Assembly: GCA_018208355.1 (NCBI GenBank) | Contig: CP062796.1 | Span: 1,918,517 to 1,982,516 of the forward strand | DNA: 64,000 nucleotides | DNA from: Candidatus Fermentithermobacillus carboniphilus | GTDB taxonomy: Bacteria > Bacillota > Sulfobacillia > Fermentithermobacillales > Fermentithermobacillaceae | Direction of reading: 5' to 3' | Position numbers and translations under genes: made by a program | In this document: positions 7,128-62,221 of the stretch, one piece after another | How the letters are laid out: each line of letters begins with the position of its first letter | Numbering within the stretch: the stretch's first letter is position 1 | The notes under the pieces: model-generated | What the model saw: the letters and a program-made list of their open reading frames with translations, nothing else | Database searches by the model: none | Told to the model about the DNA's origin: nothing

Positions 7128-7131
7128 GACA

Positions 7132-8115: not shown

Positions 8116-8216
8116 TCCGGCATGCTCTCCTTCCGCTTACTACTCTGGTCAGGTTACTTGTCCGGGTCACTTGACTTCATGTCCTGCTCACCCTATTGAG
8201 CCTTGCAGCGGACTCC

Positions 8217-10145: not shown

Positions 10146-10176
10146 GGCCGAACCTCCATTTAGATACCTTCGCGTT

Positions 10177-26092: not shown

Positions 26093-26112
26093 GCGGCGTA
26101 TCTTCCTGGTCT

Positions 26113-26775
26113 TCAGCAGATGAAGGGCAGAACCCAGTATGTGCCCCTCGATGGACCAGAGTTCTCGCCCTCGAATATGTCCCGCAGGTACTGTCGGCTT
26201 GCCTCCTCGGGTACCATTTCTGGAAGGATGACAGGGCCGTAAACCGATACTGTTCGAACTACCGTCCTCCCGAAGATGTCGTGCAGCACGTACGCATGCC
26301 CCAGGACAGCTGTGGCATCGTCCCCGGCGGCCCGGAGTGTGTTGCTCTCGGGGAAGTTCCGAAGATTCCGGAGAAGGCAGGCAGAGTCCGCACCTACCGC
26401 AACATCTCGCCCTTCGACGTAATCCGCTATGCAGCCGCATCCGCATGCCATGGCGATCACCGGATTTATGATCTGGTCCTCAGGAAGCCCGAGTCCGGCC
26501 TTCAGCATTGAGGCCAGGCCGATCATCTTGGGGCAGCAGTAGTTTTCCGGCGATATGGATACAGGGGTCGGAAGGAAGATGGCGTCCGCGCCGCAGTCGG
26601 TCAGCAGTTTCCTGGCGTGAGGAAAAGCGATCTTCACTGATATGCAGGGTTCGTCCGTGGGGCACAGCGTGAGCTGTTCAAGGTCCTTTGCGCTGGACGG
26701 AGGGCTTTCGACGAATTCAACTCCCAATTGGCTGAGAAATGTCCGATACAGCGGGAACAGGTAGTAGACTGTCAT
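26113..26775 (-). CDS. DUF2229 N-terminal domain protein (possibly the N-terminal half of a gene split from 24659-26092)
   Basis: MTVYYLFPLYRTFLSQLGVEFVESPP...CISVKIAFPHARKLL...AIFLPTPVSI matches the DUF2229 N-terminus. The ORF ends 20 nt before the next ORF's likely start in a different frame. Confidence 0.5.
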   Translation of the reverse strand: MTVYYLFPLYRTFLSQLGVEFVESPPSSAKDLEQLTLCPTDEPCISVKIAFPHARKLLTDCGADAIFLPTPVSISPENYCCPKMIGLASMLKAGLGLPEDQIINPVIAMACGCGCIADYVEGRDVAVGADSACLLRNLRNFPESNTLRAAGDDATAVLGHAYVLHDIFGRTVVRTVSVYGPVILPEMVPEEASRQYLRDIFEGENSGPSRGTYWVLPFIC

Positions 26776-29771: not shown

Positions 29772-31592
29772 ATGTCGTACCTTTCCGAGGTAGGCGGTGT
29801 TGCTCAGGAAGTGTGCGACGCCATTGCCTCCGTGCTGGGCGTCGACGTTGAAATAGTTGATGATATGCTGGTAAGGATCGCGGGAACCGGCAAGTACCGC
29901 TCTCGGGTCGGTTGGTTTCTCGGAAGCGAAGGTGTTGTATACAAGCACGTCCTGCGTACCGGCAAGGGGGCGCTCTTAGCCAATCCCGGTAAAGAAGCAA
30001 TTTGTTCTATGTGCTCGAGGGCAGGGAATTGTGAGGAAACGGCGGAACTGTCTTCCCCGATAATCGTGGATGGTAGAACGGTAGGTGTAATCGGTCTTGT
30101 TTGTTTTGACCAGGAGCAGCGAGATCGACTCCTTTCTAGGATAGACTCACATAAGGAGTTCATCGGCCACATGGCGGGGCTCTTGGCAGCAAAGGCAGTC
30201 GAATCTCACATGTGGATGGAGAAAAAACTTGCTGCCGAAATCATAATGTTGCTCTTGGACAGGATAGATGAGGCCGTCATCGCCGTTGACCATCTCGGGA
30301 AACCCATCTACCTGAACCGCCGGGCTCGGAAAACATTTGAAATTCCCAACAGTGCGTCTCCTTTAGAGGATCACCCTGAATCAAAGCCATTCCGCGCGGC
30401 CATGGCCGTCCTGAGAGACGCCTTATCTTCCGGAAAACGGTACAGCCAAAGCGAGATATTCATGGATACTGGTACCGGGGAACAAGGTTTTATGGTATCT
30501 ACGAGCGTCCTCAGTGACGGCGGGAAAAACCTGGGTGCCATAGCTTCCTTCAGGCCGGTTTCGGAACTCCACCGGTGGGCGTATGACCTCACGCACGGGA
30601 GCGCCGGAGCGGTATTCGGTGTGGACTCACTTATCGGACAAAGTCGTTCCATAGCGGAACTAAAAGAGATTGCCCTCAAAGTTGCTAAGAGTCCTTCCAC
30701 CGTCCTTATCAGGGGGGAGAGCGGGACGGGCAAGGAACTTCTGGCGAGAGCCATCCACTCGGCCAGCGACCGGAAAGATAAGCCTTTTGTGGCCGTAAAC
30801 TGTGCAGCTATACCGGATGGCCTCTTGGAAAGCGAACTTTTCGGGTACGAGGAGGGGGCGTTCACCGGCGCCAGAAAGGGCGGCAAGCCGGGGAAATTTG
30901 AGATCGCCGACGGAGGAACGTTGTTCCTCGATGAGATCGGAGACATGTCTTTGCACCTCCAATCCAAACTATTGAGGGTTCTCCAGGAGCGCCAGGTTGA
31001 GAGACTGGGCTCCAACAAGCCCAGACGTTGTGACGTCAGGATCATTGCCGCCACCAACCAGGATTTGGAACGCAAAATGCAGAACGGGGAGTTCAGAGAC
31101 GATCTCTATTTCCGGCTGAGTGTCATACCGATATACATTCCTCCGCTTCGTGAAAGGCCAGAAGATGTCGAACCGTTGGTGCGTCACTTCGTCCGAAAAT
31201 ATGCGGAAATCATGGGCAAAAAGATCGACGATGTGGAACCTTCTGCATTGGAGCTCCTTAAGTCCTATTCTTGGCCCGGGAATGTCCGGGAGCTCGAGAA
31301 CGCCATCGAATATGCGGTAAACTTTGAGACAAAGGAGATTCTTACTGTAAAGAGCCTTCCGGCAAGAATACGGAGTTGTGGGAATGCTCAGGAGAAGGGC
31401 TTTGCCTCCGGGCTGCGGATCGAGGGTCGTGTGTCAGGAATTAAGGCTGCGGAGATCGACTTGATAAGGCAGGCGCTTAAAAAATACGGGACCAGCTATG
31501 AGGGAAAAAAACGAGCCGCGAGGGAATTAGGGATAGGTATTGCCACACTGTACAGGAAGATTTCCCGCTATCGGATCGAGGTATCAAACTGA
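29772..31592 (+). CDS. Sigma-54-dependent transcriptional activator (N-terminal sensory region, AAA+ sigma-54 interaction domain, C-terminal Fis-type HTH)
   Basis: [15 protein letters not shown] (Walker A), the GAFTGA-type loop ([15 protein letters not shown]), Walker [13 protein letters not shown] and a C-terminal HTH ([16 protein letters not shown]). A GGAGG ribosome-binding site precedes the ATG. Confidence 0.85.
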
Positions 31593-31753
31593 TAGGTCCA
31601 TATCATTTTGAGATTAACCCGCGAGCTTCTTCCAGTGATTCAAGATTCCAATATTGCGAGCGGATGATTGGGGGCCTTTTTGCTGGCGTCCAAAGCTTTC
31701 TATCAAAGTGATAAACCGCCCTCACGCGATTCCCAGAACGCACCGTCTTCTTG

Positions 31754-31785
31754 CATGGCATATCCGGGGCATATTTCTTGCTTTT
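31754..31785 (+). promoter_or_regulatory. Candidate sigma-54 (-24/-12) promoter upstream of the YgeY-like operon
   Basis: Two overlapping GG-N10-GC matches: TGGCATATCCGGGGCA and GGGCATATTTCTTGCT (-24 GG / -12 GC with correct spacing). They lie ~120 nt upstream of the first gene and directly downstream of the sigma-54 activator gene. Confidence 0.4.
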
Positions 31786-31901
31786 GCTAGTGTTCGGAGA
31801 ATCATCGAGCAGATGGCGACGGTTTAAGCCGAGCCTTTCCTTATTAACTGGGGCTTGAAGAGTTGGGACAAGGCACTACGTCTACAAGGGAGGCCAGAAA
31901 C

Positions 31902-33092
31902 TTGATCGATGACAAGAGAGCGGACGATGTAGTGGAACTATGCCGGAAGATGATCCGGCAGCCAAGCTTATCCGGACACGAAGAAGGTATGGCGGACCTC
32001 GTGCGTGAGACCATGAATGCTTTGGGCTACGACGAGGTGAATACCGACAAGTACGGTAACGTCGTTGGGAGGATCTCCTTTAAGCGGCCCGGGAAGAGGA
32101 TATTGTTCGAAGGACACATGGATCACGTGGACGTGGGAGATCTCTCGAAATGGACGGTAGATCCGTATGGTGCCACCGTCCGGGATGGGAAGATATTCGG
32201 GCGAGGAGCCACCGACATGAAAGGGAGCCTCGCTGCCATGATCGCCGCGGGAGCTTACCTCAAGGCAGACCACTACGATGACCTCGAGGGCGAAATCCTC
32301 GTTGCTGCCTCGGTTCACGAGGAATGTTTTGAAGGCGTCGCTTCCAGGGAAATCGGGGAGCGGTACCGGCCCGATTATGTGGTCATAGGGGAGGCTTCTT
32401 CGCTCAACGTCAAGAGAGGGCAAAGGGGGAGAGCCGAGGTTGTGCTTGAAACCCACGGCAAATCGGCTCATTCGTCCAACCCCGAAGAAGGTATAAATGC
32501 GGTCAAGAAGATGATTAAACTGCTTCAGGAGATAGAAAACTCATACGTTCCCCCAAAACAGGATGTACTGGGAAAAGGCATACTGGAGCTCACCGACATT
32601 ATTTCGTCGCCGTATCCGGGAGCCAGCGTAGTGCCTGCGAGATGCAGAGTTACGTTCGACAGACGCCTTCTAGTTGGAGAAACCGAAGAAAAGGTCCTCG
32701 CAGCCATACAGGACATCATCGATAAAATCGCCGCGCAAGACCCGGAGTTCCGGGCCACGGTGAGCATTGCGATAGGGGAAGACAAGTGTTATACAGGTGA
32801 ACCCATAAGGGCCAAGAGATTTGCTCCCGGTTGGCTTTTCCCGGAAGATCACGAGTTTGTGATAAAAGCGATGAAAGGACTCAAGAAAGCCGGCCTTTCG
32901 CCGAATCTCTCCCACTACGCTTTCTGCACCAACGGCAGCTACTATGCGGGCATTGCAGGGATTCCCACCATCGGATTTGGGGCGTCGCGGGAAGAACTGG
33001 CCCACGTGGTAGACGAGTATGTCGAAATTGACCAGCTCCTGAACGCATGCAAGGGATATTACGCCATAGCCCTGGAGGTTCTCCGGAGGTAG
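31902..33092 (+). CDS. YgeY-family M20 hydrolase (ArgE/DapE-like)
   Basis: M20 ligand and dimerisation motifs, plus KRGQRGRAEVVLETHGKSAHSSNPEEGINA, which recalls the YgeY-type RGQRGR block. Start taken at the TTG at 31902 with a GGGAGG site 8 nt upstream; the track ORF starts at 31863. Confidence 0.65.
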   Translation: MIDDKRADDVVELCRKMIRQPSLSGHEEGMADLVRETMNALGYDEVNTDKYGNVVGRISFKRPGKRILFEGHMDHVDVGDLSKWTVDPYGATVRDGKIFGRGATDMKGSLAAMIAAGAYLKADHYDDLEGEILVAASVHEECFEGVASREIGERYRPDYVVIGEASSLNVKRGQRGRAEVVLETHGKSAHSSNPEEGINAVKKMIKLLQEIENSYVPPKQDVLGKGILELTDIISSPYPGASVVPARCRVTFDRRLLVGETEEKVLAAIQDIIDKIAAQDPEFRATVSIAIGEDKCYTGEPIRAKRFAPGWLFPEDHEFVIKAMKGLKKAGLSPNLSHYAFCTNGSYYAGIAGIPTIGFGASREELAHVVDEYVEIDQLLNACKGYYAIALEVLRR

Positions 33093-33098
33093 CTCTAA

Positions 33099-34352
33099 AT
33101 GAGTAAAATCTTCGAACTACAGTGCGTTTTGTGCGGAAAGCGGTACCGCGAAGGAGAGGTGGAATATACCTGCCCATCCTGCGGCATGGACGGCACCTTA
33201 GACGTGCTTTACGACTATGACGTGGCGCGCAAGGCAATCAGCAGGGAAGCGCTGGCACAGAACAGGGATTACAGCTTGTGGAGATACTGGCCCATATTAC
33301 CCGTTCACGAACGAGATCACGTACCGCCGCTGTCGGTTGGTTGGACCCCGCTGTACGAGAGCGACAGATTGGCAGCGCAGTACGGAGTGAAGCGACTTTT
33401 CATCAAAGACGACGGGCGGAATCCCACAGGTTCCTTGAAGGACCGTGCCAGTGCCATAGCAGTCGGACGGGCTCTCGATCTAGGAAGGAAGGAGGTGAGT
33501 TGTTCCTCCACGGGAAACGCTGCAAGTTCTCTTGCCGGGTTTTGTACAGTTGCTTCTCTGAGAAGCACCATTTTTGTCCCCGAATCCGCTCCCGAGGCTA
33601 AAGTCACGCAGCTTCTCGTCTACGGTGCGCGTGTGGTACTGGTCAAGGGCGACTATAACGATGCGTTCAACCTGTCAGAAAAGGCCATCGAACGTTTCGG
33701 CTGGTACAACCGGAACTGCGCCATAAACCCGTATCTAGTCGAAGGCAAGAAAACTTGCGGCCTCGAGGTGGCAGAGCAGTTAGGTTGGGAAGTTCCGGAC
33801 TATTTGTTCGTCGCCGTTGGTGATGGGTGCATCATAAGCAGTTTCTACAAGGCTTTCCATGATCTCATAAAGCTCGGTATCACCGACAGGATGCCCCGTA
33901 TCGTAGGTGTGCAAGCAGAAGGATGTAAGCCTCTTGTCGAGGCCGTTAAGAGAGGTGAGTTTCGGGTCAAGGCTTTCGAAAAAGCGGATACGATAGCGGA
34001 TTCGATCGCGGTACGTCGGCCCAGAAACTGGGCCAAGGCTCTTCGGGCCGTACGGGAAAGTCAGGGTACGATGGTTTCGGTATCTGACGGGGAGATACTC
34101 TCGGCCATCCGTGAACTTGCCTGTAATACCGGTGTGTTTGCCGAACCTGCAGGCGCAGCTTCATTTGCCGGTTTCCGAAAGATGGCTCTATCAGGTCAAC
34201 TCCGGCAAGATGAAACCGCAGTAGTGGTCGTGACGGGAAATGGACTCAAAGATATCTCAAGTGCCAGGAAAGCCGTAGGGGATCCGATAGTCAGCCCGCC
34301 GGACATCGAGGCGTTCGTGAGGATCCTGAGCCGGGTAAAAGGTTTAGCATAA
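33099..34352 (+). CDS. Threonine synthase-like fold-type-II PLP enzyme with an N-terminal C4 zinc-ribbon
   Basis: CVLCGKRY...CPSCG zinc-ribbon, then a GSLKDRA PLP-lysine motif (compare ThrC TGSFKDRG) and a glycine-rich PLP phosphate loop (VAVGDGC). Confidence 0.65.
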   Translation: MSKIFELQCVLCGKRYREGEVEYTCPSCGMDGTLDVLYDYDVARKAISREALAQNRDYSLWRYWPILPVHERDHVPPLSVGWTPLYESDRLAAQYGVKRLFIKDDGRNPTGSLKDRASAIAVGRALDLGRKEVSCSSTGNAASSLAGFCTVASLRSTIFVPESAPEAKVTQLLVYGARVVLVKGDYNDAFNLSEKAIERFGWYNRNCAINPYLVEGKKTCGLEVAEQLGWEVPDYLFVAVGDGCIISSFYKAFHDLIKLGITDRMPRIVGVQAEGCKPLVEAVKRGEFRVKAFEKADTIADSIAVRRPRNWAKALRAVRESQGTMVSVSDGEILSAIRELACNTGVFAEPAGAASFAGFRKMALSGQLRQDETAVVVVTGNGLKDISSARKAVGDPIVSPPDIEAFVRILSRVKGLA

Positions 34353-34446
34353 GCAGTCCGTCATGTTCGAGGATACGGGGAACACCGTTTCCGCGGCAAT
34401 TGGCCGGTGCTTGATCAAAGATACAAACCTTGGAGGTCTGTCTAGG

Positions 34447-35835
34447 ATGTCGAAACCGCTGGTCTGGGGACCCACTTTCGATGAAATGCTTCATCCCGAA
34501 AAGATAGACCCTGAAATCAGGAAAAAAGCTCTTGAGGCAAGGGTTAAAGACCCCCTTTCACCAATAAATCTTTTCAATATCACGTGGAAGCAAGACAATG
34601 GTTCCCCATCGTACATGGTCCTGCCGAAAGAGCTGACGGGAGTGGATGCCAACATAATCGTCCTTTACGCGAGGGACTTCCCCACCGGGTCACACAAGGT
34701 GGGCGCTACGTACTCGGTCACCCTCGAAAAGCAGCTTCTCGGGGAAATTACCCCCGGAGAAGTTTCCCTCGTCTTTCCTTCCACCGGCAACTACGGGATA
34801 GGCGGGGCATGGGTGGGACCGAGGATGGGCTACGATACCCTGGTCGTGCTTCCCGAACTCATGAGTCGTGAGCGATTCGAGATGATCGAGAGATACGGAG
34901 CAAGATACATCAAGACTCCGGGGTGCGAATCCAGCGTCAAGGAAATCTACGACAAATGCAGGGAACTTTCGAAGGATCCTTCCATAAAGATACTCAACCA
35001 GTTTCAGGAGATGGCCAATTACAGGTTCCACTATTACGTGACAGGAAACACGGTAAAAGAGGTGGTCGAAGACCTTAAGCGAAAGGGCACTGGCAACGGA
35101 CGCTGCGCCGCTTTTGTGTCGGCCATGGGTTCTGCGGGGACCATCGCGGCAGGCGACCGTTTGAAGCAAGTCTTTCCAGAAACAAAAATCGTGGGCCTGG
35201 AACCTATCCAGTGCCCGACCCTGTACTGCAACGGGTACGGAGACCACGACATCCAAGGTATCGGCGACAAGCATGTCACGTGGATCCACAACGTCCTCAA
35301 CATGGACTGCCTCATGTGCATCGACGACATGGAGTGCAAACTCGGACTACAGCTCCTTACGGACCCCGTCGGGATGGATTACCTTTCGGGAAGCGTAGGG
35401 ATCTCGCCCGGCATCGTCCAGGAGATGTCCACGATATTTGGTATCTCGGGGGTCTGCAATGTTCTCGGTGCAATCAAGACGGCCAAGTATTACAGGCTGA
35501 ATAGCAGCCACAACGTGGTCACCATCCTCACGGACACGATAGACAGGTACAGGTCTGTCATGGCCGATCTCGATCGGAAGTTCGGCAGGATGACGAAGGA
35601 GACGGCGGCACAGCGGTATTACGGGATCTTCAAGAACGTCAAGCTCGACTACGTGCAGGAGGGGACGAGAGACACAAGAGACAGGTGGTTCAACCTGAAG
35701 TATTACACCTGGGTTGAGCAGCAGGGGAAAACGGTATCGGAGTTAAACGCCCAGCGGAACCCCGACTGGTGGCTCCAAGAACAAGCGAAGGTCGCGGAGA
35801 TTGATGCCCAGCTTAAGCAGGCGAGGGGTTTTTAG
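34447..35835 (+). CDS. Fold-type-II PLP-dependent enzyme (diaminopropionate ammonia-lyase/OrtB-like) with a ~60-aa C-terminal extension
   Basis: The block GSHKVGATYS aligns with the DpaL-type PLP-lysine block (AFKMLGGAYA). Also the glycine-rich SAMGSAGT loop. Start at the ATG at 34447 with a GGAGG site. Confidence 0.55.
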   Translation: MSKPLVWGPTFDEMLHPEKIDPEIRKKALEARVKDPLSPINLFNITWKQDNGSPSYMVLPKELTGVDANIIVLYARDFPTGSHKVGATYSVTLEKQLLGEITPGEVSLVFPSTGNYGIGGAWVGPRMGYDTLVVLPELMSRERFEMIERYGARYIKTPGCESSVKEIYDKCRELSKDPSIKILNQFQEMANYRFHYYVTGNTVKEVVEDLKRKGTGNGRCAAFVSAMGSAGTIAAGDRLKQVFPETKIVGLEPIQCPTLYCNGYGDHDIQGIGDKHVTWIHNVLNMDCLMCIDDMECKLGLQLLTDPVGMDYLSGSVGISPGIVQEMSTIFGISGVCNVLGAIKTAKYYRLNSSHNVVTILTDTIDRYRSVMADLDRKFGRMTKETAAQRYYGIFKNVKLDYVQEGTRDTRDRWFNLKYYTWVEQQGKTVSELNAQRNPDWWLQEQAKVAEIDAQLKQARGF

Positions 35836-35913
35836 GATTCAATCTAAACCGAGCCCCTAGAGGAATTGCCGAAGTTTACTTCTCTGATCATCTTCGGGGA
35901 AAGGAGGATCAGT

Positions 35914-37512
35914 GTGGCAGAGTTCGACCTTATCATAAAAAACGGTATGGTGGTAGATGGTACCGGTACTCCGGGTCAGCAGGCGGACGTCGCTATCGTA
36001 GGTGACAAAATCGCGGCCATAGGGCGGTTAGAAGGCTCTGTGGCAAGAAAGACTATCGATGCGACCGGGAAGGTTGTGTGTCCCGGTTTCATAGATACCC
36101 ATAGCCATTCGGATCTCCTCGTGTTGGACCAACCGTATATCGACCCGAAGGTGCGGCAAGGAGTTACCACGGAGGTCATAGGTCAGGATGGCATGTCCCT
36201 GGCCCCCGTGCGGGATGAGTACCTGTCTGCATGGAAAAAGGCAATGGCAGGTCTGGAAGGGAGTTACGACGTTGATTGGGACTGGCGTTCGGTAAGGGAG
36301 TATCTCGATAGAATAGAGTCTATGGATTTGGGCCCCAATTTTGCCTTTCTTGCACCTCACGGAAATATCAGGTTGACAGTTATGGGGCTGGACAACAGAG
36401 AACCCACTCCCGACGAACTTGAGAAGATGCAGGACCTCCTCAGCCAATGCCTCCGTGAAGGCGCCTTTGGGCTGTCAACCGGAATGATTTATCCGCCGTG
36501 CTGCTACGCGAAGACTTATGAGTTCGTCGCTCTGGGAAAAGTGCTGGCCGATGCCGGTGCCGTCTTTGTCACGCATCAGAGAAGCGAGGCTGACGACATA
36601 CTGAATTCGGCGGATGAGATACTGAAAATCGGCCGTGAGTCTGGCTGCCGGGTCCATTTTTCCCATTTCAAGGTCGCCGGGAAGAAGAATTGGTCAAAGA
36701 TTGACCCTTTATTCGAAAAACTCGATAGGGCCCGCGCCGATGGCATGACGATCTCTTTTGACCAGTATCCCTATGTTGCTGGCAGTACCATGCTGAGTGT
36801 GATACTTCCACCGTGGGCTCACGACGGTGGGACTGATAGACTCCTTGAAAGGCTCAAGGACCCGGTGCTCCGGGAAAAGATGAAAAAAGACATCAGAGAG
36901 GGGATCCCGGGCTGGGATAATTTTGTGGACTTCGCCGGTCTCGACGGCATTTTCGTGACGTTCGTGAAAACCGAAAAGAACCAGGATGCAATAGGAAAGA
37001 ATCTCGTGGAGTTAGGCGAGATGCGTAGGAAAGAGCCCCTGGACGCCGCATTTGATCTCCTCTTGGAAGAAGAAAACGTCGTTGGGATGGTGGATTTTTA
37101 CGGGACGGAAGAACACGTGGTTAGGATCATGACTCGCCCGGAGCAGAACGTCTCGACTGACGGGATAATGGGGGCAAAACCGCATCCAAGGCTCTACGGG
37201 ACCTTCCCGCGGATTCTCGGTAAATACGTCCGCGAAGAGAAGGTCATGTCCCTCGAAACGGCAATCTACAAGATGACCGGAAAGCCTGCGTCGGTTCTGG
37301 GGCTTAAGGACCGCGGGATCTTGAAAGAGGGATTTTTCGCCGATGTAGTCATCTTTGATCCCCAGACGGTCAAAGACACAGCCGATTACGTGAACCCCAG
37401 GCAGTATCCGGTGGGGATAGAGTATGTGTTTGTCAACGGCAAGATGATCGTCGAGTGCGGTCAACCGAGACCTCAAAGAGCGGGCAAAGTCCTGAGATTC
37501 TCCGGGAGGTGA
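35914..37512 (+). CDS. N-acyl-D-amino-acid deacylase (D-aminoacylase) family amidohydrolase
   Basis: D-aminoacylase-type N-terminus (DLIIKNGMVVDGTGTPG...VAIVGDKIAAIG), metal ligands (GFIDTHSHSD) and a C-terminal amidohydrolase_3 region (IEYVFVNGKMIVECGQ). Start at the GTG at 35914, 7 nt after AAGGAGG. Confidence 0.75.
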   Translation: MAEFDLIIKNGMVVDGTGTPGQQADVAIVGDKIAAIGRLEGSVARKTIDATGKVVCPGFIDTHSHSDLLVLDQPYIDPKVRQGVTTEVIGQDGMSLAPVRDEYLSAWKKAMAGLEGSYDVDWDWRSVREYLDRIESMDLGPNFAFLAPHGNIRLTVMGLDNREPTPDELEKMQDLLSQCLREGAFGLSTGMIYPPCCYAKTYEFVALGKVLADAGAVFVTHQRSEADDILNSADEILKIGRESGCRVHFSHFKVAGKKNWSKIDPLFEKLDRARADGMTISFDQYPYVAGSTMLSVILPPWAHDGGTDRLLERLKDPVLREKMKKDIREGIPGWDNFVDFAGLDGIFVTFVKTEKNQDAIGKNLVELGEMRRKEPLDAAFDLLLEEENVVGMVDFYGTEEHVVRIMTRPEQNVSTDGIMGAKPHPRLYGTFPRILGKYVREEKVMSLETAIYKMTGKPASVLGLKDRGILKEGFFADVVIFDPQTVKDTADYVNPRQYPVGIEYVFVNGKMIVECGQPRPQRAGKVLRFSGR

Positions 37513-37517
37513 ATCCA

Positions 37518-37808
37518 ATGAACGTCAACGAAAGGGATTACGATATCCGCGAGGTTGAAGTGGACGAAAGGTTTACGATTGCCAAACGAGAGATGCTCAT
37601 AACCTTCGTGGTTCAGCTTGCTTACACTTTCCTGATGCTGGTTGTCGCCTACAGTCTGGGTAAAGGAGATCCCACCTTGTACCGGTTCGTGATGGGAATG
37701 CCAGAGTGGTGGTTCTGGTGCCTGATCATCACCTTTGGGTTCCTCGGTCTGATTTACTACCTGGTGAGGCGAGTCTTCAAAGATATTCCCATAGATCCCT
37801 GGCTTTAA
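37518..37808 (+). CDS. Small two-TM membrane protein, DUF997/YhdT-like (typically paired with a sodium:solute symporter)
   Basis: 96 aa with two hydrophobic helices. It sits immediately upstream of an SSS-family transporter, as for E. coli yhdT-panF. GGAGGTG ribosome-binding site. Confidence 0.5.
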   Translation: MNVNERDYDIREVEVDERFTIAKREMLITFVVQLAYTFLMLVVAYSLGKGDPTLYRFVMGMPEWWFWCLIITFGFLGLIYYLVRRVFKDIPIDPWL

Positions 37809-37833
37809 TGGTGCTTGAAGGGAGTGAATTGGC

Positions 37834-39321
37834 GTGGAACTTACCGGAGCCAGAACGTCGGTTATAATCGCGTTCGTCCTCTATTCGCTAGCGCTGCTTC
37901 TCATCGCGGAGTTCAGCAGGCGAAGGATGGCCAAGAGCAGGCTCGACCAGTACGTTAGCGAGTTCTACACCGGAGGACGAGGGATGGGTTCCTGGGTCGT
38001 CGCCTTCATGGTGGCGGCAGGACTTTGCAGCGCAGGTACGTTCCTTGGAAGCCCGGGCCTTGCCTATAGTGTGGGCCTTGTTTTTCCGTTTGTGGTGATG
38101 GCCCAATCATTCATGAACTTTGTGGTCCTGGGGCAAGTGGGAAAGAAAATCGGCATTGTCGCGAGACGAGTGGACGCCCAGTCTTACCTCGACATTCTCA
38201 CCGAGAGGTACAACCACAGTAACTTCGTCCGGTGGTTCGGTGCTCTGGCCATCTGGATATTCTACACATCCAATATAGTCGCTCAGTTGAGTGGCGGAAC
38301 CCGTCTTATCCAGGTAATGACGGGGTTCCCGTATATTTGGTCTCTCCTTGCGTTCGGCCTTGTTGTCCTCGTATATACCGTTATGGGCGGAATCAAGGGA
38401 GTATCGACCGCGATTTTCTTCCAGGGCCTGGTCATGACGATATGTATCGTGATCCTTTTCGGAGTGCTTCTGGGCAAGATCTCGCCGATGGAAAACGCGT
38501 ACCGCCAAATCATTGAGACCAATCCCAAACTGGTTTCTCCCTGGGTATGGACGCCCGCATATTCTTTTTCAATGTTCGTTTCGCTTGGCCTCGTCACCAT
38601 AGGACAGCCCCACGGAGCCATGGCTTGTCTCACCTACAAGGATACAAAAGCTATGCACAGCGCAATGATTATAGGTGCGGCGGTAGTGGCCGTTTGGAGC
38701 GCGATGATCGTTTGGGCCGGAAATCTTGCTCACGCGGTTGTCCCGAAACTTTCTGTGCCTGATTACGTGATACCGTACGTAGCGGTGAACCTGATGCCAG
38801 GATGGGTAGCGGGCCTTGTTCTGGCGGGAGTCGCTGCTGCCATACAATCCACGATAGCCGCCGTGGTCCTGGTCATCAGCTCGGCCCTCGTTCGAGACAT
38901 GTATCTCGTGCTAAAGCCGACCAAAGATCCGAAAAAAATTCGGCGTGTGACGCTCGGTGCTACGGCAGTGGCGGCTCTCGTCCCTGTGCTCATCGCCATT
39001 AAGCCTCCGGCTGCTCTGCAGTGGTTCATCCTGTTTGCCATAGGAGGCCTCACGTCTTCGTTCTTCTGGCCCATGCTCCTCGGGCTATACTGGTGGCGTG
39101 CCAATGAGTACGGCGCCATAGCCGGGATGGTGGGCGGTATGGCTACCTTCATACTGGTTCAGGGTAAGATAATACCTTTCAACCTCGGAATGCATGGGAT
39201 TGTCATGGGGCTGATAGTTTCAGGGATCCTAACGGTCGCGGTCAGTCTTGCCACTCCTAAACCTCCGAGAAGAATCATTGAACTGTTCTGGGGTAAAACC
39301 AGGCCCGTCGAAGTCACATAG
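37834..39321 (+). CDS. Sodium:solute symporter (SSS family, PanF/PutP-like)
   Basis: 13-TM profile with SSS signature regions (GGRGMGSWVVAFMVAAGLCSAGTFLGSPGLAY...GLVVLVYTVMGGIKGVSTAIFFQG). Confidence 0.8.
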   Translation: MELTGARTSVIIAFVLYSLALLLIAEFSRRRMAKSRLDQYVSEFYTGGRGMGSWVVAFMVAAGLCSAGTFLGSPGLAYSVGLVFPFVVMAQSFMNFVVLGQVGKKIGIVARRVDAQSYLDILTERYNHSNFVRWFGALAIWIFYTSNIVAQLSGGTRLIQVMTGFPYIWSLLAFGLVVLVYTVMGGIKGVSTAIFFQGLVMTICIVILFGVLLGKISPMENAYRQIIETNPKLVSPWVWTPAYSFSMFVSLGLVTIGQPHGAMACLTYKDTKAMHSAMIIGAAVVAVWSAMIVWAGNLAHAVVPKLSVPDYVIPYVAVNLMPGWVAGLVLAGVAAAIQSTIAAVVLVISSALVRDMYLVLKPTKDPKKIRRVTLGATAVAALVPVLIAIKPPAALQWFILFAIGGLTSSFFWPMLLGLYWWRANEYGAIAGMVGGMATFILVQGKIIPFNLGMHGIVMGLIVSGILTVAVSLATPKPPRRIIELFWGKTRPVEVT

Positions 39322-57215: not shown

Positions 57216-57356
57216 AAATGGAAGTGCCGAGAGTTACAGGCATCGGGATTCACAGGTGTGACGGCCTTTAGATGTGAAGGAATACAGGTATGAAAGTTCA
57301 CGGGCTTGGAAGATTACACGTCTTCAGGGTTAAAACGAGTGAAAGGACTGAGGATT

Positions 57357-58418
57357 TTGCAAAAAACGGGCGACTTTTCGGACTACCTCGTCTCGGGGCT
57401 GAGTTCCGACGGAAGGTTTCGGGTCCTGGCGGTGAGAACTACCGCTCTTGTGGAAGAGGCCCGGAGACGTCACTGTGCTTCAAGGACCGGTACTGCCGCA
57501 CTGGGGCGGGTTCTCACGGGGGCGGTCCTGATGGCGGGCACCCTGGATGAAGACCAATCGGTTACGCTGCGTTTTTTGGGAAACGGACCTGGAGGCGGCA
57601 TCATCGCTGAAGCGAGAAACGAGGGAGACATGATAACTGCGAGAGGCTACATGGGAGATCCATCGGTTGAGTTGCCTCTTTCACCCCAGGGCAAGCTTGA
57701 TGTAGGCGGAGTCGTCGGCAAAGACGGGTTTCTCTATGTCACAAAAGACCTCGGGTTGAAGGAACTGTATACAGGAAGCGCAAAGATCCAGTCAGGAGAG
57801 GTGGGCCTGGACATCGCCTACTATTACACTGTGTCCGAACAGCTCCCGTCGGCTGTATCTATAGGAGTGAGAGTAGGCGGTACGGTTATGGATCAGACCG
57901 GGGCGGCTGCCCGCCACAGACCCGGTGAGCTTGGCACTTCAGAAGAAACTGAGGATGGCCGGCGTGTCGTGTCAGGTGCCGGTGGACTCATGGTGCAGCT
58001 CATGCCGGGTGCGGAAGACGAAGAGACTGGCGTTGCCATATCGAAGATTCAGGATAACTTGGAACGCATGGGTTCAGTGAGTCTCCTTATCCAGGAAGGC
58101 AGGCCTCCGGAGCAACTCGTGGAGGCCGCTTTCGAAGGTGTCCGGGAGGTTACCCTCATGAGGAAGGTGCCGGTGACCTTCTCCTGCCGCTGTTCGCGGG
58201 ACAGGGCGGTTTCGGCTATCGTCAGCATGGGACGGGAAGAGGTGGAGAAACTGGCGGACGAAAAAGATGAGATAGAGGTGAGGTGCCACTTCTGTAACGA
58301 AGTCCACAGGTTCTCCCGGGAAGAACTCCGGGAGATCGCGAGATCCATGGGGGACACAGCCTCAAGCAACGACCCAAGGTCCGAGCCAGACGACTTTAAA
58401 GAAGCAAAGCAGGGGTAA
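57357..58418 (+). CDS. hslO: Hsp33 redox-regulated chaperone (HslO)
   Basis: Hsp33 N-domain (DYLVSGLSSDGRFRVLAVRTTALVEEARRRH) and the C-terminal zinc centre CRCSRD...CHFCNEVH (CxC...CxxC). Start taken at the TTG after the AGGACTGAGGA ribosome-binding site; the track ORF starts at 57306. Confidence 0.8.
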   Translation: MQKTGDFSDYLVSGLSSDGRFRVLAVRTTALVEEARRRHCASRTGTAALGRVLTGAVLMAGTLDEDQSVTLRFLGNGPGGGIIAEARNEGDMITARGYMGDPSVELPLSPQGKLDVGGVVGKDGFLYVTKDLGLKELYTGSAKIQSGEVGLDIAYYYTVSEQLPSAVSIGVRVGGTVMDQTGAAARHRPGELGTSEETEDGRRVVSGAGGLMVQLMPGAEDEETGVAISKIQDNLERMGSVSLLIQEGRPPEQLVEAAFEGVREVTLMRKVPVTFSCRCSRDRAVSAIVSMGREEVEKLADEKDEIEVRCHFCNEVHRFSREELREIARSMGDTASSNDPRSEPDDFKEAKQG

Positions 58419-58423
58419 CGGTC

Positions 58424-59500
58424 ATGTTGCTCTTGACGACGTGCAGCTACATACCTATCGAGATCCCCGTGGCGCTCGGAATTCCAGCGAGGCGGGCTTT
58501 TCCGCGCGGCCAAAAACCTGTTGCAGAATCGTACGTCCCCAGGGACTTTTGCCCTTACTCCAGGGCAGTCTTTAGTCTGGCCAAGGAATTGGAAGATACG
58601 AGTGAACCTGGTCTCGTGTTGGCTATAGCGGGTTCGTGCGATGCCATGAGGAGGGTATACGACGCCGTAAGGATGTACGGAAATGTCCCTACATTGTTTG
58701 TGGACGTTCCCAGGACTGGCGATGACCTGGCAGTCGGGTACTTCGCTTCGGTCCTGAGAAGATTCGCGCGGGAACTTGCGGCGCAGTCGACGGGACAGGC
58801 TACCGGCGAGGAAGAACTGGAAGAGCGTCTGTGGCGCGCGATAAGGTTACTGGATGACTTGAGAGATGTGGCAAAAAACTATGCTGACATGTCGAGTTCT
58901 TCCAGCCAGCGGCTTGAGATGCTTTTTGCCCTCGAACGCTACCTTGGCATGAAAGACATGGAAGACGCCGAACGAGCAGGTACCGACGGGCTGGTTGAAT
59001 ACCTCGTTTCGGAAGGGTTTGTCCCGGGGGAGATGAAGTCATTGACCGAAGATGGGCCTCCGGTGATCCTCACGGGAACCTACTGTCTGGATACCTCCAT
59101 GGCGGAAGCTCTGGATGAATGCGGATTTAAGGTGGCGGCCCTGGATTCTTGCTGGGGGATACGGGGATTGGAACCAGGGGAAGTACAAGATGGTGGAGAC
59201 CCATTTCTGGCGCTGGCCGGGGCGTATCTCCGGAAGACTCCGTGCCCCAGAATCCTCCAAAAAGACGCGCGCATTCTGGCGCTGGATAAACTCCTGGACG
59301 ATAACCCCGGTATCCGGGGGATCGTGTACTACCTTCCCAAGTTCTGCGACCAGGGTTATTACGACTATGTGGAGGTAAAGACCTTTGCCAAAAGGAAACA
59401 TTTGCCCCTCCTGATGGTAGAAGGGGACTATGGAGCGGGCAAGTGGGCACAAACGAAAACCCGGCTTATGGCCTTCTTGGAACTGCTGGAACAGGGCTGA
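58424..59500 (+). CDS. 2-hydroxyacyl-CoA dehydratase family subunit (HgdB/HadC/FldC-like, small subunit)
   Basis: HGD-D family N-terminus (MLLLTTCSYIPIEIPVALGIP) and conserved cluster-binding cysteines (GSCDAM, DSCWG, PKFCDQG). Confidence 0.7.
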   Translation: MLLLTTCSYIPIEIPVALGIPARRAFPRGQKPVAESYVPRDFCPYSRAVFSLAKELEDTSEPGLVLAIAGSCDAMRRVYDAVRMYGNVPTLFVDVPRTGDDLAVGYFASVLRRFARELAAQSTGQATGEEELEERLWRAIRLLDDLRDVAKNYADMSSSSSQRLEMLFALERYLGMKDMEDAERAGTDGLVEYLVSEGFVPGEMKSLTEDGPPVILTGTYCLDTSMAEALDECGFKVAALDSCWGIRGLEPGEVQDGGDPFLALAGAYLRKTPCPRILQKDARILALDKLLDDNPGIRGIVYYLPKFCDQGYYDYVEVKTFAKRKHLPLLMVEGDYGAGKWAQTKTRLMAFLELLEQG

Positions 59501-59635
59501 AAAAGTCCCTTGGACCTGCCCCGATGTTTGATGGTACGGATGGCGGTATGTAAGCCAAACATGATCAAATGGAATTCCTGTTCATCGGATGGAATTCCAG
59601 TTAAGTTAAGTCTCTGGCGGAGGGATTGAGGGACG

Positions 59636-60931
59636 TTGTGGCCGCGCTTTTTCAGGCTACATAAATCACCGACCCAGGGAAATTTCCCGGAAAAGGCCTT
59701 GAGGTTCTTGCTCGAAAGGGGTTTTACCTACAAGGCCGTTGAGACCTACTTGGCCAGAAAAAGCAATGGTCAGAAATCTTACCAGGAAGTAGCCGCATCA
59801 GGGATCTTGACCGAGCTTCGCCAGGCCTACCGGAGAGAAAGACCGGTGATCTATACCACCGCTTTTGTACCGACGGAACTGGTATACGGCCTCGGTGCGG
59901 TCCCTTTTCTCCCGGAGGTATGGAGCGGCTTTGCCGCGTCACTGGGCGTCGCTCCGAGAGCTATACACATTTCGGAATCCCTGGGATATTCGCAAGATCT
60001 CTGCAGCTTCCACAGGTGCGGTCTTGGCCTCTTCGGGATGGGGATACTGCCGAATCCCTCTGCGGTTATAGTATCGTCCCACCTTTGCGACGGAGGCAGG
60101 CGATCCCTTTACTACCACAGCCGTGTCGCCGGATGTCCCCTGTACGTCCTGGATGTCCCGTATTCGTTCGACAGGGAAGCCAGGGTTTTTTTGGCTCGGC
60201 AGATCGAGCATGTGGCCCAGGATCTGGTCAGAAAAGTTCCCGGGTTGTCCTTAGACCACATGAGACGGGCAATAGAGGCCTCGAACGGGGCAAGGAGGGT
60301 GTACCTCGACGTGTGCCGGGTGAGAAGGAATGTCCCATCTCCCTGGAGAGGAAGCGAGGCCCTGAATTACGTCTCGGTGTTTCTTTCCTCCTGGGGAAGC
60401 GGGTGGCTTCCCGAGTTTTATGGGGAACTTTTGAGATACCTGGAGAGAACCGTGAGGACCTGCGCATTTCCGGTCGGAAATGAGAGGCACAGGCTGCTGT
60501 GGTTGAACCTCCGGCCGTATTACAGGACCCCGATTTTCGATTTCCTGGAAAAGCAATTCTCGACGTCCATAGCCTTCGAAGAGTATAGCAAGCTGTACTG
60601 GCCCGAGATCGACCCGGACAATTGGGCGGAAGGACTTGCGGAAAAGATGATGTCTAACTTCGGTTGGGGGCCCCTTGAAAGAAGGATTCACGCCGTATGG
60701 TCTATGGTGGAGGATTATTCCATCGACGGGGTCGTTCAATTCAACCAATGGGGCTGCAGGCAGTCCAATGGTGGGGCGAGGCCGCTGAGAGACTTTCTAC
60801 AAAAAAGAGGAATCCCGTTCCTCGAGTTGGATGGCGATGGGGTTGATGCCGGGAACTCCGGTTCAGCCCAGGCCATCACAAGGTTGTCTGCCTTCCTTGA
60901 GATGCTGGATTCACGTGGGGTGATCGCTTGA
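59636..60931 (+). CDS. 2-hydroxyacyl-CoA dehydratase family subunit (HgdA/HadB/FldB-like, large subunit)
   Basis: HGD-D family blocks (VIYTTAFVPTELVYGLGAVPF, DLCSFHRCG, HLCDGG, FNQWGCRQS). Confidence 0.7.
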   Translation: MWPRFFRLHKSPTQGNFPEKALRFLLERGFTYKAVETYLARKSNGQKSYQEVAASGILTELRQAYRRERPVIYTTAFVPTELVYGLGAVPFLPEVWSGFAASLGVAPRAIHISESLGYSQDLCSFHRCGLGLFGMGILPNPSAVIVSSHLCDGGRRSLYYHSRVAGCPLYVLDVPYSFDREARVFLARQIEHVAQDLVRKVPGLSLDHMRRAIEASNGARRVYLDVCRVRRNVPSPWRGSEALNYVSVFLSSWGSGWLPEFYGELLRYLERTVRTCAFPVGNERHRLLWLNLRPYYRTPIFDFLEKQFSTSIAFEEYSKLYWPEIDPDNWAEGLAEKMMSNFGWGPLERRIHAVWSMVEDYSIDGVVQFNQWGCRQSNGGARPLRDFLQKRGIPFLELDGDGVDAGNSGSAQAITRLSAFLEMLDSRGVIA

Positions 60932-61704
60932 CCGTCGCGGTTGGCGTAGATTCAGGTTCGACGACCACGAAAGTGGTGGTCCTGGTAAACGGGAAAGTTG
61001 CCTGCACTACCTCGGCGGTGACAGGTCCAGACCCGGCGAAGACAGCTTCGCTCTGTATTGATAAAGCTCTTTCCGAATGCGGGCACACTTTCCGGGAAAT
61101 AAGTTGTCTGGTTGCCACAGGGTACGGTAGGGAAAGAGTATCTGGCGCGACCAGGATCCTCACCGAGATAACATGTCACGCCAGAGGTGCCCACGCCATG
61201 GTTCCTGCAGCCCGGACGATAATCGATATCGGAGGCCAGGACTCTAAGGTCATAAGACTTGACGAAAGAGGTTTCGTCCAGGACTTCATAATGAACGACA
61301 AGTGTGCGGCGGGTACCGGACGTTTTCTCGAAGTCATGGCCGCCCGTCTCCAAGTGGGGCTCGATGAGTTCGGAGAGGAGTGGGGGAGGGCGCGGGGTTC
61401 TGTAAAGATCTCCAGTACGTGCACGGTTTTTGCCGAATCCGAGATCATCAGTCTTATTTCTGCCGGCGTGAAGAGGCCTGAAGTCATCAAAGGCCTGTGC
61501 AACGCCATAGCGGGGCGGGTTGCGAGCATGGCCAGGAGGGTCGGTATCGAGCCTGCGGTAGTTTTCACGGGCGGCGTCAGCCTCAATGAGGGAGTGAGGC
61601 GGGCGCTGGAGGATGCTCTCTCCCAGAAAATCGTGGTTCCGCCCATGTCACAATTTATGGGGGCTTACGGGGCTGCGTTATTTGCCCAAGACCTTGTAGA
61701 ATGA
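60928..61704 (+). CDS. CoA-substrate-specific enzyme activase (HgdC/HadI-type ATP-dependent [4Fe-4S] activator)
   Basis: VGVDSGSTTTKVVVL, DIGGQDSKVI, DKCAAGTGRFLE and GGVSLNEGVRRALE motifs. The cluster-bridging Cys is in the STCTVFAESE region. The TTG start overlaps the upstream stop. Confidence 0.8.
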   Translation: MTVAVGVDSGSTTTKVVVLVNGKVACTTSAVTGPDPAKTASLCIDKALSECGHTFREISCLVATGYGRERVSGATRILTEITCHARGAHAMVPAARTIIDIGGQDSKVIRLDERGFVQDFIMNDKCAAGTGRFLEVMAARLQVGLDEFGEEWGRARGSVKISSTCTVFAESEIISLISAGVKRPEVIKGLCNAIAGRVASMARRVGIEPAVVFTGGVSLNEGVRRALEDALSQKIVVPPMSQFMGAYGAALFAQDLVE

Positions 61705-61792
61705 TGGCAGCATACCCTCTGGATCGGCCGAAAGTAAAGAGCCCCCGGCGTCACTGTCCCTTTGTGGGATCTATCGCGGTTCCGCCTCAGTC

Positions 61793-62221
61793 TTACCTGA
61801 GGTTCTCGGCGATCTCCCGGATTCGCCGTTCTTCCTCCGACCGTGGCTCAGGCAGCACAATACCGTGGGGGACAGGCCGACCCTCGGTGTCTACCTTAAC
61901 GAATGTTACGAACCCGTCAACCATGGGGTTGGGGCTATCGTTCTTAATGACGCGGCCGAATACCGTAAGACTAGTGCGGCCCGCTCGTACAGGGAATGTG
62001 CGAAACGTGAGGATGTCGCCTTTGCTGGCGGGAGTCGTAAATTCTAGACCATGGAGTTTTAGACAAACTACCTCCTCTGGACGGCCAATAGTACGGCAGG
62101 CAGCGATAAAACAGGCTTCAATGAACCACTCCGCCATCCGTCCGGCGAACAGGGTACCGTGATGGTTAAGGTCCTCCTCTTTGATGAGACGTGCAACGAT
62201 TACAGGCTCGAGCGATGTCAT
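61793..62221 (-). CDS. Hotdog-fold acyl-CoA thioesterase (YciA/4HBT-like)
   Basis: LNHHGTLFAGRMAEWFIEACFIAA...GDILTF is a 4HBT/YciA-type hotdog motif. Confidence 0.7.
   Translation of the reverse strand: MTSLEPVIVARLIKEEDLNHHGTLFAGRMAEWFIEACFIAACRTIGRPEEVVCLKLHGLEFTTPASKGDILTFRTFPVRAGRTSLTVFGRVIKNDSPNPMVDGFVTFVKVDTEGRPVPHGIVLPEPRSEEERRIREIAENLR

Follow-up and report, generated by a model that had tools for sequence, protein, structure and literature searches.

Near the end of a 64,000-nucleotide (nt) stretch of Candidatus Fermentithermobacillus carboniphilus (contig CP062796.1, positions 1,918,517 to 1,982,516; hereafter the window) lies a three-gene module of the superfamily that contains the 2-hydroxyacyl-CoA dehydratases (HADs) and the benzoyl-CoA reductases (BCRs). 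By a small measure we favor reading its three open reading frames (ORF1-ORF3) as one self-contained ATP-dependent iron-sulfur radical enzyme, belonging to an uncharacterised lineage that stands beside the characterised dehydratases and class I reductases. The small subunit keeps six cysteines, and because this branch retains in it all six ligands of a double-cubane cluster, the module is probably not an ordinary amino-acid-fermentation dehydratase. The module consists of the following genes (lengths in amino acids, aa):

58424-59500, + strand: ORF1, small (accessory) subunit, 358 aa, ATG start; Pfam HGD-D, 2.7e-46
59636-60931, + strand: ORF2, large (catalytic-type) subunit, 431 aa, TTG start; Pfam HGD-D, 5.5e-59
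60928-61704, + strand: ORF3, electron-injecting ASKHA ATPase ("archerase" or activator), 258 aa, TTG start; BcrAD_BadFG, 1.8e-65

ORF1 and ORF2 are 100% identical to proteins of Ca. F. carboniphilus Bu02, a closed 2.32-Mb metagenome-assembled genome from class DTU015 of the Bacillota. The organism is a thermophilic anaerobe for which peptide and amino-acid fermentation is predicted (PMC10215811). An earlier sequence-only reading of this DNA had described an HgdB-like, an HgdA-like and an HgdC-type gene with a thioesterase gene (ORF4) converging on them; all four ORFs are present, and their coordinates and lengths were exact.

The small subunit keeps a complete set of double-cubane ligands

In BzdN, an [8Fe-9S] double cubane is bound through Cys36/73/100/263/293/327 and acts as an electron store, and DCCP carries one double cubane per monomer, whereas the HADs have lost both double cubanes and HadC retains just a [4Fe-5S] remnant (PMC11971306). 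We found that Cys7/43/72/243/274/308 of ORF1 align one-to-one with the six BzdN residues and with the DCCP ligands.

C7 58442-58444; C43 58550-58552; C72 58637-58639; C243 59150-59152; C274 59243-59245; C308 59345-59347, + strand: predicted [8Fe-9S] ligands of ORF1, from the alignment to BzdN/DCCP

These six positions are invariant in 8 small subunits of related loci (30-45% identity) and in 29 database relatives. They are filled by Cys in 117 of 123 aligned sequences, the six exceptions being four N-terminally truncated family members and the references HadC (-CCACC) and MbdN (-CCFYC). When 1.84 billion cluster representatives were searched exhaustively (4897 hits at E<=1e-3, 857 at E<=1e-30), further representatives were added, 132 of 138 of which have all six. 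A joint alignment shows the proximal triad (second, third and sixth Cys) in every subunit type; a complete distal triad (first, fourth and fifth Cys) is found only in DCCP, YjiM, BzdN and the ORF1 family, and is missing from HadC (the one HAD beta sequence in the ligand comparison), MbdN, BcrC and all large subunits. ORF1 and 133 of 139 related representatives lack the seventh Cys of the DCCP motif, which is non-coordinating.

The cluster cysteines thus all persist on careful alignment, as the sequence-only reading had needed them to, and ORF1 is predicted from them to carry an [8Fe-9S] double cubane. The label "HgdB-like" does not suit this cofactor site, which has the full BzdN/DCCP set that was lost in the HAD beta subunits (PMC11971306). 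Against the PDB, the small-subunit family profile scores highest with DCCP (181 bits), followed by BzdN (165), HadC (152) and MbdN (89). The AlphaFold 2 (AF2) model of ORF1 has a mean predicted local distance difference test (pLDDT) score of 88.8 and matches DCCP, HadC and BzdN about equally (template modelling, TM, scores of 0.73-0.79), so that fold searches confirm the ORF1 fold and do not discriminate among these three.

The large subunit has an open-site cluster motif

ORF2 contains the three cysteines expected for a [4Fe-4S] cluster with one open site. C123, C151 and C374 are invariant in 44 relatives (34-66% identity), together with E81, E94, R127, R375 and Q376.

C123 60002-60004; C151 60086-60088; C374 60755-60757, + strand: three-Cys open-site [4Fe-4S] set of ORF2
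E94 59915-59917, + strand: conserved Glu of ORF2, aligned with HadB Glu55

The three cysteines align with C95/C128/C380 of BzdO, where Cys95/128/380 hold a [4Fe-4S]-OH2 cluster (PMC11971306), and the positions that would correspond to a distal cubane are not Cys in ORF2. C128 of ORF2 was considered as a fourth cluster ligand and rejected, since it is Cys in just 26 of the 44 relatives.

The large-subunit family profile matches HadB (138 bits), DCCP (132), BzdO (129) and MbdO (94) in the PDB. The AF2 model of ORF2 (pLDDT 92.4) finds its best fold match in HadB (TM 0.80/0.86, root-mean-square deviation 2.8 A), then in BzdO and MbdO, and ORF2 shares its N-terminal helices and overall fold with HadB and BzdO. 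A motif DLC-S/A-F/Y-x-R and a C-terminal GD..D.R are common to the ORF2 family, HadB and BzdO and are not found in DCCP. One position in the presumptive substrate site differs. The residue two past the first ligand is Tyr in BzdO, HadB, MbdO and BcrB, and in BzdO this Tyr makes a hydrogen bond to the thioester oxygen; it is Phe in 42 of 44 family members. In ORF2, Phe125 and Gly154 occupy the positions of BzdO Tyr97 and His131, the latter being unconserved in MbdO and BcrB as well.

The activator belongs to the module and the convergent thioesterase does not

ORF3 scores 283 bits against TIGR00241, "acyl-CoA dehydratase activase" (cut-off 125), and matches HadI (223 bits), MbdQ (210), HgdC (204) and DCCP-R (168) in the PDB. 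The motifs MNDKCAAGTGRFL and SSTCTVFAESE are conserved, and the two cysteines that would bridge a [4Fe-4S] cluster in the homodimer lie in conserved motifs:

C126 61303-61305; C165 61420-61422, + strand: [4Fe-4S]-bridging Cys of the ORF3 homodimer

The claim that the system has its own activator therefore holds, in the form of an HgdC/HadI-type ATPase with two cluster-bridging cysteines. The fourth gene had been called a convergent YciA-type acyl-CoA thioesterase. Its convergence stands, with 88 nt between the end of ORF3 and ORF4, and the YciA-type label proved too loose.

61793-62221, - strand: ORF4, hotdog-fold acyl-CoA hydrolase, 142 aa; Pfam 4HBT, 6.6e-10

Against the YciA NCBIfam model ORF4 reaches only 20.8 bits (E 2.8e-4; cut-off 162). 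Its PDB matches are led by the acyl-CoA hydrolases 2gvh (5.4e-16) and 1vpm (5.8e-15), with YciA HI0827 at 7e-3, so that ORF4 fits the Bacillus-type acyl-CoA hydrolases (1vpm) much better than YciA. We also rejected the thioesterase as a part of the system, because a homologue lies beside the module in none of the 88 other loci; the convergent ORF4 is an incidental neighbor and not a conserved component.

The two subunits probably form a separate, early-branching lineage

We built a neighbor-joining tree (335 columns, 200 bootstraps). Its references were E. coli YjiM, the HadB/C and DCCP sequences as given in PDB alignments, and full-length BzdN/O, BcrB/C and MbdN/O, for which the PMC11971306 source data were used. 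With DCCP+YjiM (100%) as the outgroup, the large-subunit family forms a clade of its own (100%), whose sister group is HadB+BzdO+MbdO+BcrB (96%). The references BzdN+HadC+MbdN+BcrC make up one group (86%), outside which the small-subunit family falls, the two being joined at 80%. Identity of the family to every reference is about 20%. Clear orthology, which would have spoken against the sequence-only reading, was found to no characterised enzyme among the sequences compared, and both subunits branch outside the clade of HadBC and the class I BCRs. The ORF1/ORF2 lineage thus appears to have split off before the dehydratases and class I reductases diverged, which agrees with the retention of an ancestral double-cubane site.

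Family models lead to the same placement outside the named groups. No NCBIfam equivalog cut-off was approached by ORF1 or ORF2:

ORF1 against double_cubane (NF040772): 105 bits, cut-off 350
ORF1 against HadC (NF052456): 34 bits, cut-off 700
ORF1 against BzdN (TIGR03190): 32 bits, cut-off 454
ORF2 against double_cubane (NF040772): 66 bits, cut-off 350
ORF2 against HadB (NF052455): 65 bits, cut-off 750
ORF2 against BcrB: 27 bits, cut-off 487
ORF2 against BzdO (TIGR03191): 45 bits, cut-off 449

These scores bear directly on one rival reading, in which the module would be an aryl-CoA reductase of class I (Bzd type), acting to dearomatise benzoyl-CoA or one of its analogues. Such an enzyme would account for the predicted cofactor pair, which is that of BzdNO ([8Fe-9S] and [4Fe-4S]), and for the shared gene order small-large-ATPase. 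However, the TIGR03190 and TIGR03191 scores are far under their cut-offs, the pair lies outside the BzdO+BcrB+MbdO+HadB clade, and Tyr97 and His131 of BzdO are not conserved. The module also has one ATPase gene where class I BCRs have two distinct ATPase subunits (PMC11971306), the window contains no ferredoxin or dienoyl-CoA pathway genes, and the host is described as a fermenter that does not degrade aromatics. We therefore regard an aryl-CoA reductase as very improbable.

The pair is widespread in strict anaerobes and its surroundings vary

A pattern scan with one genome per species placed relatives of ORF2 in at least 187 species-level genomes, all of strict anaerobes. Hosts among the Bacillota include Moorella thermoacetica DSM 21394, Neomoorella carbonis, N. 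sulfitireducens, Thermanaeromonas, Ammonifex, Desulfovirgula, Syntrophomonadaceae and Desulfotomaculum; further hosts belong to the Thermodesulfobacteriota, the Dehalococcoidia and other Chloroflexota, the Armatimonadota and the Aminicenantes. Using ORF calls and protein clusters from 89 loci, we found that the small gene is followed directly by the large one in at least 73 of them, and the large one directly by an ATPase gene in at least 49 of the 79 loci with enough downstream sequence. In two cases (L024 and P0169) the small and large subunits are fused in one 785-aa protein, and these natural fusions independently support the two subunits being one enzyme.

Flanking genes differ among lineages. 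Each recurrent neighbor is found in a minority of loci and some are confined to single clades:

15 loci: CsoR/CopA upstream, a copper-efflux pair, essentially in one clade
12 loci: radical SAM/SPASM protein of 481 aa, on either side of the module, in two phyla
8 loci: L-lactate dehydrogenase downstream (TIGR01771, 384 bits, cut-off 304), in loci that have no ATPase
6 loci: LeuA/aconitase-like (2-oxo-acid elongation) genes, divergent upstream
5 loci: AMP-dependent acyl-CoA ligase flanking the module
3 loci: PaaK-like ligase, 2-3 genes from the module, in two cases also with an IorA-like gene

Because everything around the small-large(-ATPase) genes varies from locus to locus, the module is self-contained. 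A CoA-transferase turned up in none of the 89 loci, so that its lack here is a trait of the family and not a quirk of one locus. As the family spans acetogens, sulfate reducers, syntrophs and Dehalococcoidia, this family-wide lack weakens an amino-acid-fermentation reading. The locus had been called atypical for amino-acid fermentation on the same grounds, and this description keeps its force as far as the missing CoA-transferase goes; it no longer describes an oddity of this locus, since the whole family shares it.

The L-lactate dehydrogenase loci form a sub-clade (L010, L027, L028, L029, L036, L042, L045 and L080; e.g. L027:8346-9386). The radical SAM/SPASM loci are L031, L037, L041, L043, L044, L048, L051, L053, L060, L063, L071 and L074 (e.g. 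L041:4013-5458), and carry the labels Syntrophomonadaceae, other Bacillota (Thermoanaerobacterales and unclassified), Desulfobacteraceae, Desulfobacterales and unclassified Deltaproteobacteria. This protein of about 480 aa reaches no NCBIfam cut-off, its best matches being NirJ2/AhbD-like, and it is possibly a functional partner in those lineages. When the window itself was searched by tblastn for homologues of the recurrent neighbors (radical SAM, L-lactate dehydrogenase, AMP-dependent ligase, PaaK, IorA and LeuA/aconitase-like proteins), only the radical SAM core of MoaA was matched.

In another reading the substrate is not a CoA thioester. The module could then be an ATP-dependent reductase whose substrate is a small molecule, after the example of DCCP, or an intermediate of lipid or cofactor metabolism, after that of PlsA/PlsR, with ORF2 adapted to a different carbonyl or unsaturated compound and possibly a housekeeping or stress-related role. 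DCCP and the plasmalogen synthase PlsA/PlsR are precedents in the superfamily for substrates other than CoA thioesters. Such a role would agree with the exchange of the thioester-oxygen Tyr of BzdO (kept in HadB, MbdO and BcrB) for Phe in 42 of 44 family members, with the lack of any consistently linked gene of CoA metabolism, and with the radical SAM/SPASM protein that flanks 12 loci of two phyla on either side, the CsoR/CopA pair upstream in 15 loci and Hsp33 in 2. However, a CoA thioester is the substrate of every large (alpha-type) subunit characterised so far, and ORF2 agrees with HadB and BzdO both in its N-terminal helices and overall fold and in the DLC-S/A-F/Y-x-R and GD..D.R motifs, which DCCP does not share. 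Acyl-CoA ligases flank 5 loci and stand 2-3 genes off in 3 more, and all of the neighbor associations are limited to minorities of loci, partly to single clades. Altogether a substrate other than a CoA thioester seems improbable, although distinctly less so than an aromatic one.

Layout of the locus and its immediate surroundings

The sequence-only reading had all three genes translationally coupled. This is borne out for ORF2 and ORF3, which overlap by TTGA (60928-60931). ORF1 and ORF2 are not coupled, because a gap of 135 nt separates them:

59501-59635, + strand: ORF1-ORF2 spacer, 135 nt, from the sequence

The gap is the third-largest among 73 homologous loci, for which the median is -1 nt. 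The spacer contains a 10-nt direct repeat, ATGGAATTCC, at 59569-59578 and 59589-59598; both copies hold the palindrome GGAATTCC and can therefore pair as a hairpin. The predicted stability of this hairpin is not significantly higher than that of shuffled sequences (z = -1.43). A Shine-Dalgarno-like stretch, GGAGGG/GAGGGA, precedes the TTG start of ORF2, and a scan for promoters and terminators across 55.8-62.7 kb returned counts equal to chance. Both subunits had been thought small for characterised enzymes; ORF1 is (358 aa against 375-388 aa for HadC, BzdN, MbdN and BcrC), and ORF2, at 431 aa, is larger than HadB (408 aa).

Upstream, the gene for a redox-regulated chaperone ends 5 nt before the ORF1 start, and with so short a distance the two genes are possibly co-transcribed.

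57306-58418, + strand: Hsp33 (HslO) redox-regulated chaperone gene; HSP33, 1.6e-78

Hsp33 lies directly upstream also in a 67%-identical relative (L002:7704-8636) and in no other locus. The Hsp33 and CsoR/CopA genes upstream of the module could reflect a real link to redox or metal stress or could be mere inherited synteny. A gene for a PLP-dependent enzyme of Cys/Met metabolism (Pfam Cys_Met_Meta_PP) is located about 2.5 kb upstream of the module.

Neither a CoA-transferase nor an AMP-dependent ligase domain was found in 29 large ORFs scanned in the window, as had been stated, and gene calls to about 7 kb past the window end also contain no CoA-transferase or AMP-dependent ligase domain. A 2-hydroxyacid dehydrogenase was likewise not found in the window or in the ~7 kb past its end. 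Partner genes just past the window, which the sequence-only reading had raised as a possibility that would count against it, are not there, since an H+-pyrophosphatase and an oligopeptide (Opp) ABC transporter are found downstream instead.

Proposed mechanism and net reaction

In this superfamily, ATP hydrolysis by a dimeric ASKHA ATPase forces a low-potential electron into the HGD-D component, where a [4Fe-4S] cluster with a free iron site makes a ketyl-type radical on the bound thioester. The outcome is either elimination of water, with catalytic use of ATP (HAD), or net reduction, with stoichiometric use of ATP (BCR, DCCP) (PMC7317905, PMC9351452, PMC11971306). From the ligand residues found in the three ORFs, we infer an [8Fe-9S] cluster in ORF1, an open-site [4Fe-4S] cluster in ORF2 and a bridging [4Fe-4S] cluster in the ORF3 dimer, which would amount to the BzdNO cofactor set combined with a single activator in the style of HAD and DCCP. 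Reduced ferredoxin or flavodoxin would load the [4Fe-4S] cluster of the ORF3 homodimer, and ATP hydrolysis would then drive the ORF3 electron into the double cubane of ORF1. From there the electron would pass to the open-site cluster of ORF2, which would reduce a bound carbonyl substrate to a ketyl-type radical. By analogy with every characterised large subunit, to which ORF2 is homologous, the substrate would most likely be an acyl thioester.

For the net reaction we lean, with a little less than even confidence, towards a two-electron reduction, because the double cubane has so far been known only in net reductases. A role as a two-electron store has been proposed for it in those enzymes. 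The gene order small-large-ATPase, as in bzd, bcr and yjiML, also speaks for reduction; the yjiM-yjiL order was observed in E. coli. The same order holds for bzdNOPQ and bcrCBAD; hadIBC and hgdCAB are ordered differently.

The most substantial competing explanation is that the module is a genuine (R)- or (S)-2-hydroxyacyl-CoA dehydratase, activated by ATP, which carries out a redox-neutral syn-elimination of water through a ketyl radical. This we consider clearly less probable than not, and we give the same doubtful standing to its fuller form, in which the enzyme serves reductive fermentation of amino acids or 2-oxo acids with its CoA-transferase or ligase and its dehydrogenase encoded elsewhere, the six-Cys subunit being an ancestral relic. 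A dehydratase would fit the fold of ORF2, closest to HadB (TM 0.86), the resemblance of ORF3 to HadI, the single homodimeric activator gene found in all HADs and the invariant Glu that matches HadB Glu55. It would also suit a host that ferments peptides and amino acids and has the Cys_Met_Meta_PP gene nearby, the L-lactate dehydrogenase directly downstream in 8 loci, and the LeuA/aconitase-like genes divergent upstream in 6; the loci that have no ATPase (at least 20) agree with catalytic activation. However, the small subunit retains double-cubane ligands that the characterised HAD beta subunits have lost, both subunits fall outside the HadBC+BCR clade, the HadB and HadC scores (65 and 34 bits) are far from cut-offs of 750 and 700, and a CoA-transferase is found neither in the 89 loci nor in the window. 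The hosts include acetogens, sulfate reducers, syntrophs and Dehalococcoidia, groups for which reductive fermentation of amino acids is not a known trait, and the gene order is unlike hadIBC and hgdCAB. Known HADs act on (R)-2-hydroxyacyl-CoA, whereas the linked dehydrogenase is of the L-specific lactate dehydrogenase type.

Several observations weigh against a reductive radical enzyme of a separate lineage and have to be set beside those in its favor. The nearest matches of ORF2 in structure and of ORF3 in sequence are the dehydratase components HadB and HadI. The ATPase is not adjacent in at least 20 loci, so that catalytic activation would fit better than stoichiometric activation. The L-lactate dehydrogenase beside the pair hints at 2-hydroxy-acid chemistry, with L rather than R stereochemistry, and the amino-acid-fermenting host is a further hint of 2-hydroxy-acid chemistry. 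With Phe in place of the Tyr in 42 of 44 family members, binding of a thioester is not assured. The double cubane, for which the six aligned and conserved Cys are the sole evidence, could be an ancestral feature retained by a dehydratase, and the reductases MbdNO and BcrBC work without one. Finally, the tree was made by neighbor joining with few references, HgdAB, FldBC and LcdAB not being among its sequences.

Other features of the window

A second, different system of the BCR/HAD superfamily is present at 23625-26775 (- strand), where three overlapping ORFs resemble "CoA enzyme activase"/PlsA proteins:

26113-26775, - strand: ORF with DUF2229
24659-26446, - strand: ORF with a C-terminal piece of HGD-D and DUF2229
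23625-24968, - strand: BcrAD_BadFG ATPase with a Cys-rich tail

The 334-nt overlap between the first two, which are read in different frames, points to a frameshift or a pseudogene. An IS110-family transposase (26913-28259, + strand) is immediately beside them. The window also contains a molybdenum-cofactor biosynthesis cluster at 5650-11583 (- strand), with a MOSC/MoCF protein, MoaA and two MoeA paralogues, of which one carries a fused PBP-like domain. At 29772-39321 (+ strand), the gene for a sigma-54 activator (GAF-AAA-HTH_8) precedes those for an M20 peptidase, two PALP (pyridoxal phosphate (PLP)-dependent) enzymes, an amidohydrolase and an SSF symporter, probably an operon for amino-acid or peptide catabolism under sigma-54 control.

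Significance

Structures with [8Fe-9S] double cubanes exist for only two proteins, DCCP and BzdN, and among double-cubane proteins a physiological reaction is defined for BzdNO alone (PMC11971306). It is conceivable, though we would not expect it, that the module stands for an ancient third branch of the heterodimeric radical enzymes driven by ATP, a sister group of HAD plus class I BCR, in which an [8Fe-9S] reservoir and a single homodimeric archerase serve the low-potential two-electron reduction of a non-aromatic and possibly non-CoA substrate, and which is common to many strict anaerobes (Moorella, syntrophs, sulfate reducers, Dehalococcoidia). If so, it would bring a new reaction class to the superfamily and a second double-cubane enzyme with a physiological role. 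Public databases label the family only as "2-hydroxyacyl-CoA dehydratase", which is likely a systematic mis-annotation. Culturable Moorella and Neomoorella strains are among the hosts, and the family offers a tractable system for asking whether the double cubane serves electron storage or is an evolutionary relic. Its position beside the HAD+BCR split is also relevant to the evolution of ketyl-radical dehydratases and Birch-type reductases out of DCCP-like ancestors.

Comparison with known systems

PlsA/PlsR-type ("CoA enzyme activase") systems are built on a large multidomain protein with DUF2229 and tandem ATPase domains, and membership of the module in this group was rejected because ORF1-ORF3 have no match to DUF2229.

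BzdNO(PQ) of Aromatoleum sp. CIB (PDB 8S02; PMC11971306) is, as predicted for the module, a heterodimer of two paralogous HGD-D subunits, with a six-Cys [8Fe-9S] small subunit and a three-Cys open-site [4Fe-4S] large subunit, for which the module shows the ligands only. In both, an ASKHA ATPase drives electron delivery (predicted here), and the genes are ordered small-large-ATPase. The module differs in its identity of about 20%, its position outside the BCR+HAD clade and scores far under the TIGR03190/TIGR03191 cut-offs. It has one ATPase gene, or none in related loci, in place of the BzdP/BzdQ heterodimer, and it has Phe for BzdO Tyr97, Gly/Ala for His131 and no aromatic-pathway context.

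HadBC/HadI shares the three-component design with a single homodimeric activator, and ORF3 matches HadI at 223 bits. HadB is the structure on which the ORF2 model superposes best (TM 0.86), and ORF2 keeps the three Cys and the equivalent of Glu55. However, HadC has no first and fourth Cys and only a [4Fe-5S] remnant, while ORF1 keeps all six. No hadA-type CoA-transferase or D-2-hydroxyacid dehydrogenase lies near the module, the gene order is different, and the ORF1/ORF2 pair is a sister lineage and is not nested among these enzymes.

DCCP/DCCP-R of Carboxydothermus hydrogenoformans (PDB 6ENO, 7YYL) and E. coli YjiM/YjiL have the six coordinating Cys of ORF1. DCCP is the top match of the ORF1-family profile (181 bits), and a homodimeric ATPase partner is encoded downstream in both cases. 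DCCP differs in being a homodimer from one gene, with two double cubanes, a seventh conserved Cys and narrow small-molecule channels. Only 6 of 139 ORF1 relatives have the seventh Cys, and the two subunits score 105 and 66 bits with NF040772 against a cut-off of 350. Where DCCP uses one gene product twice, the module pairs its six-Cys subunit with a second, three-Cys, HadB-like subunit, adjacent to it in at least 73 of 89 loci and fused to it in L024 and P0169.

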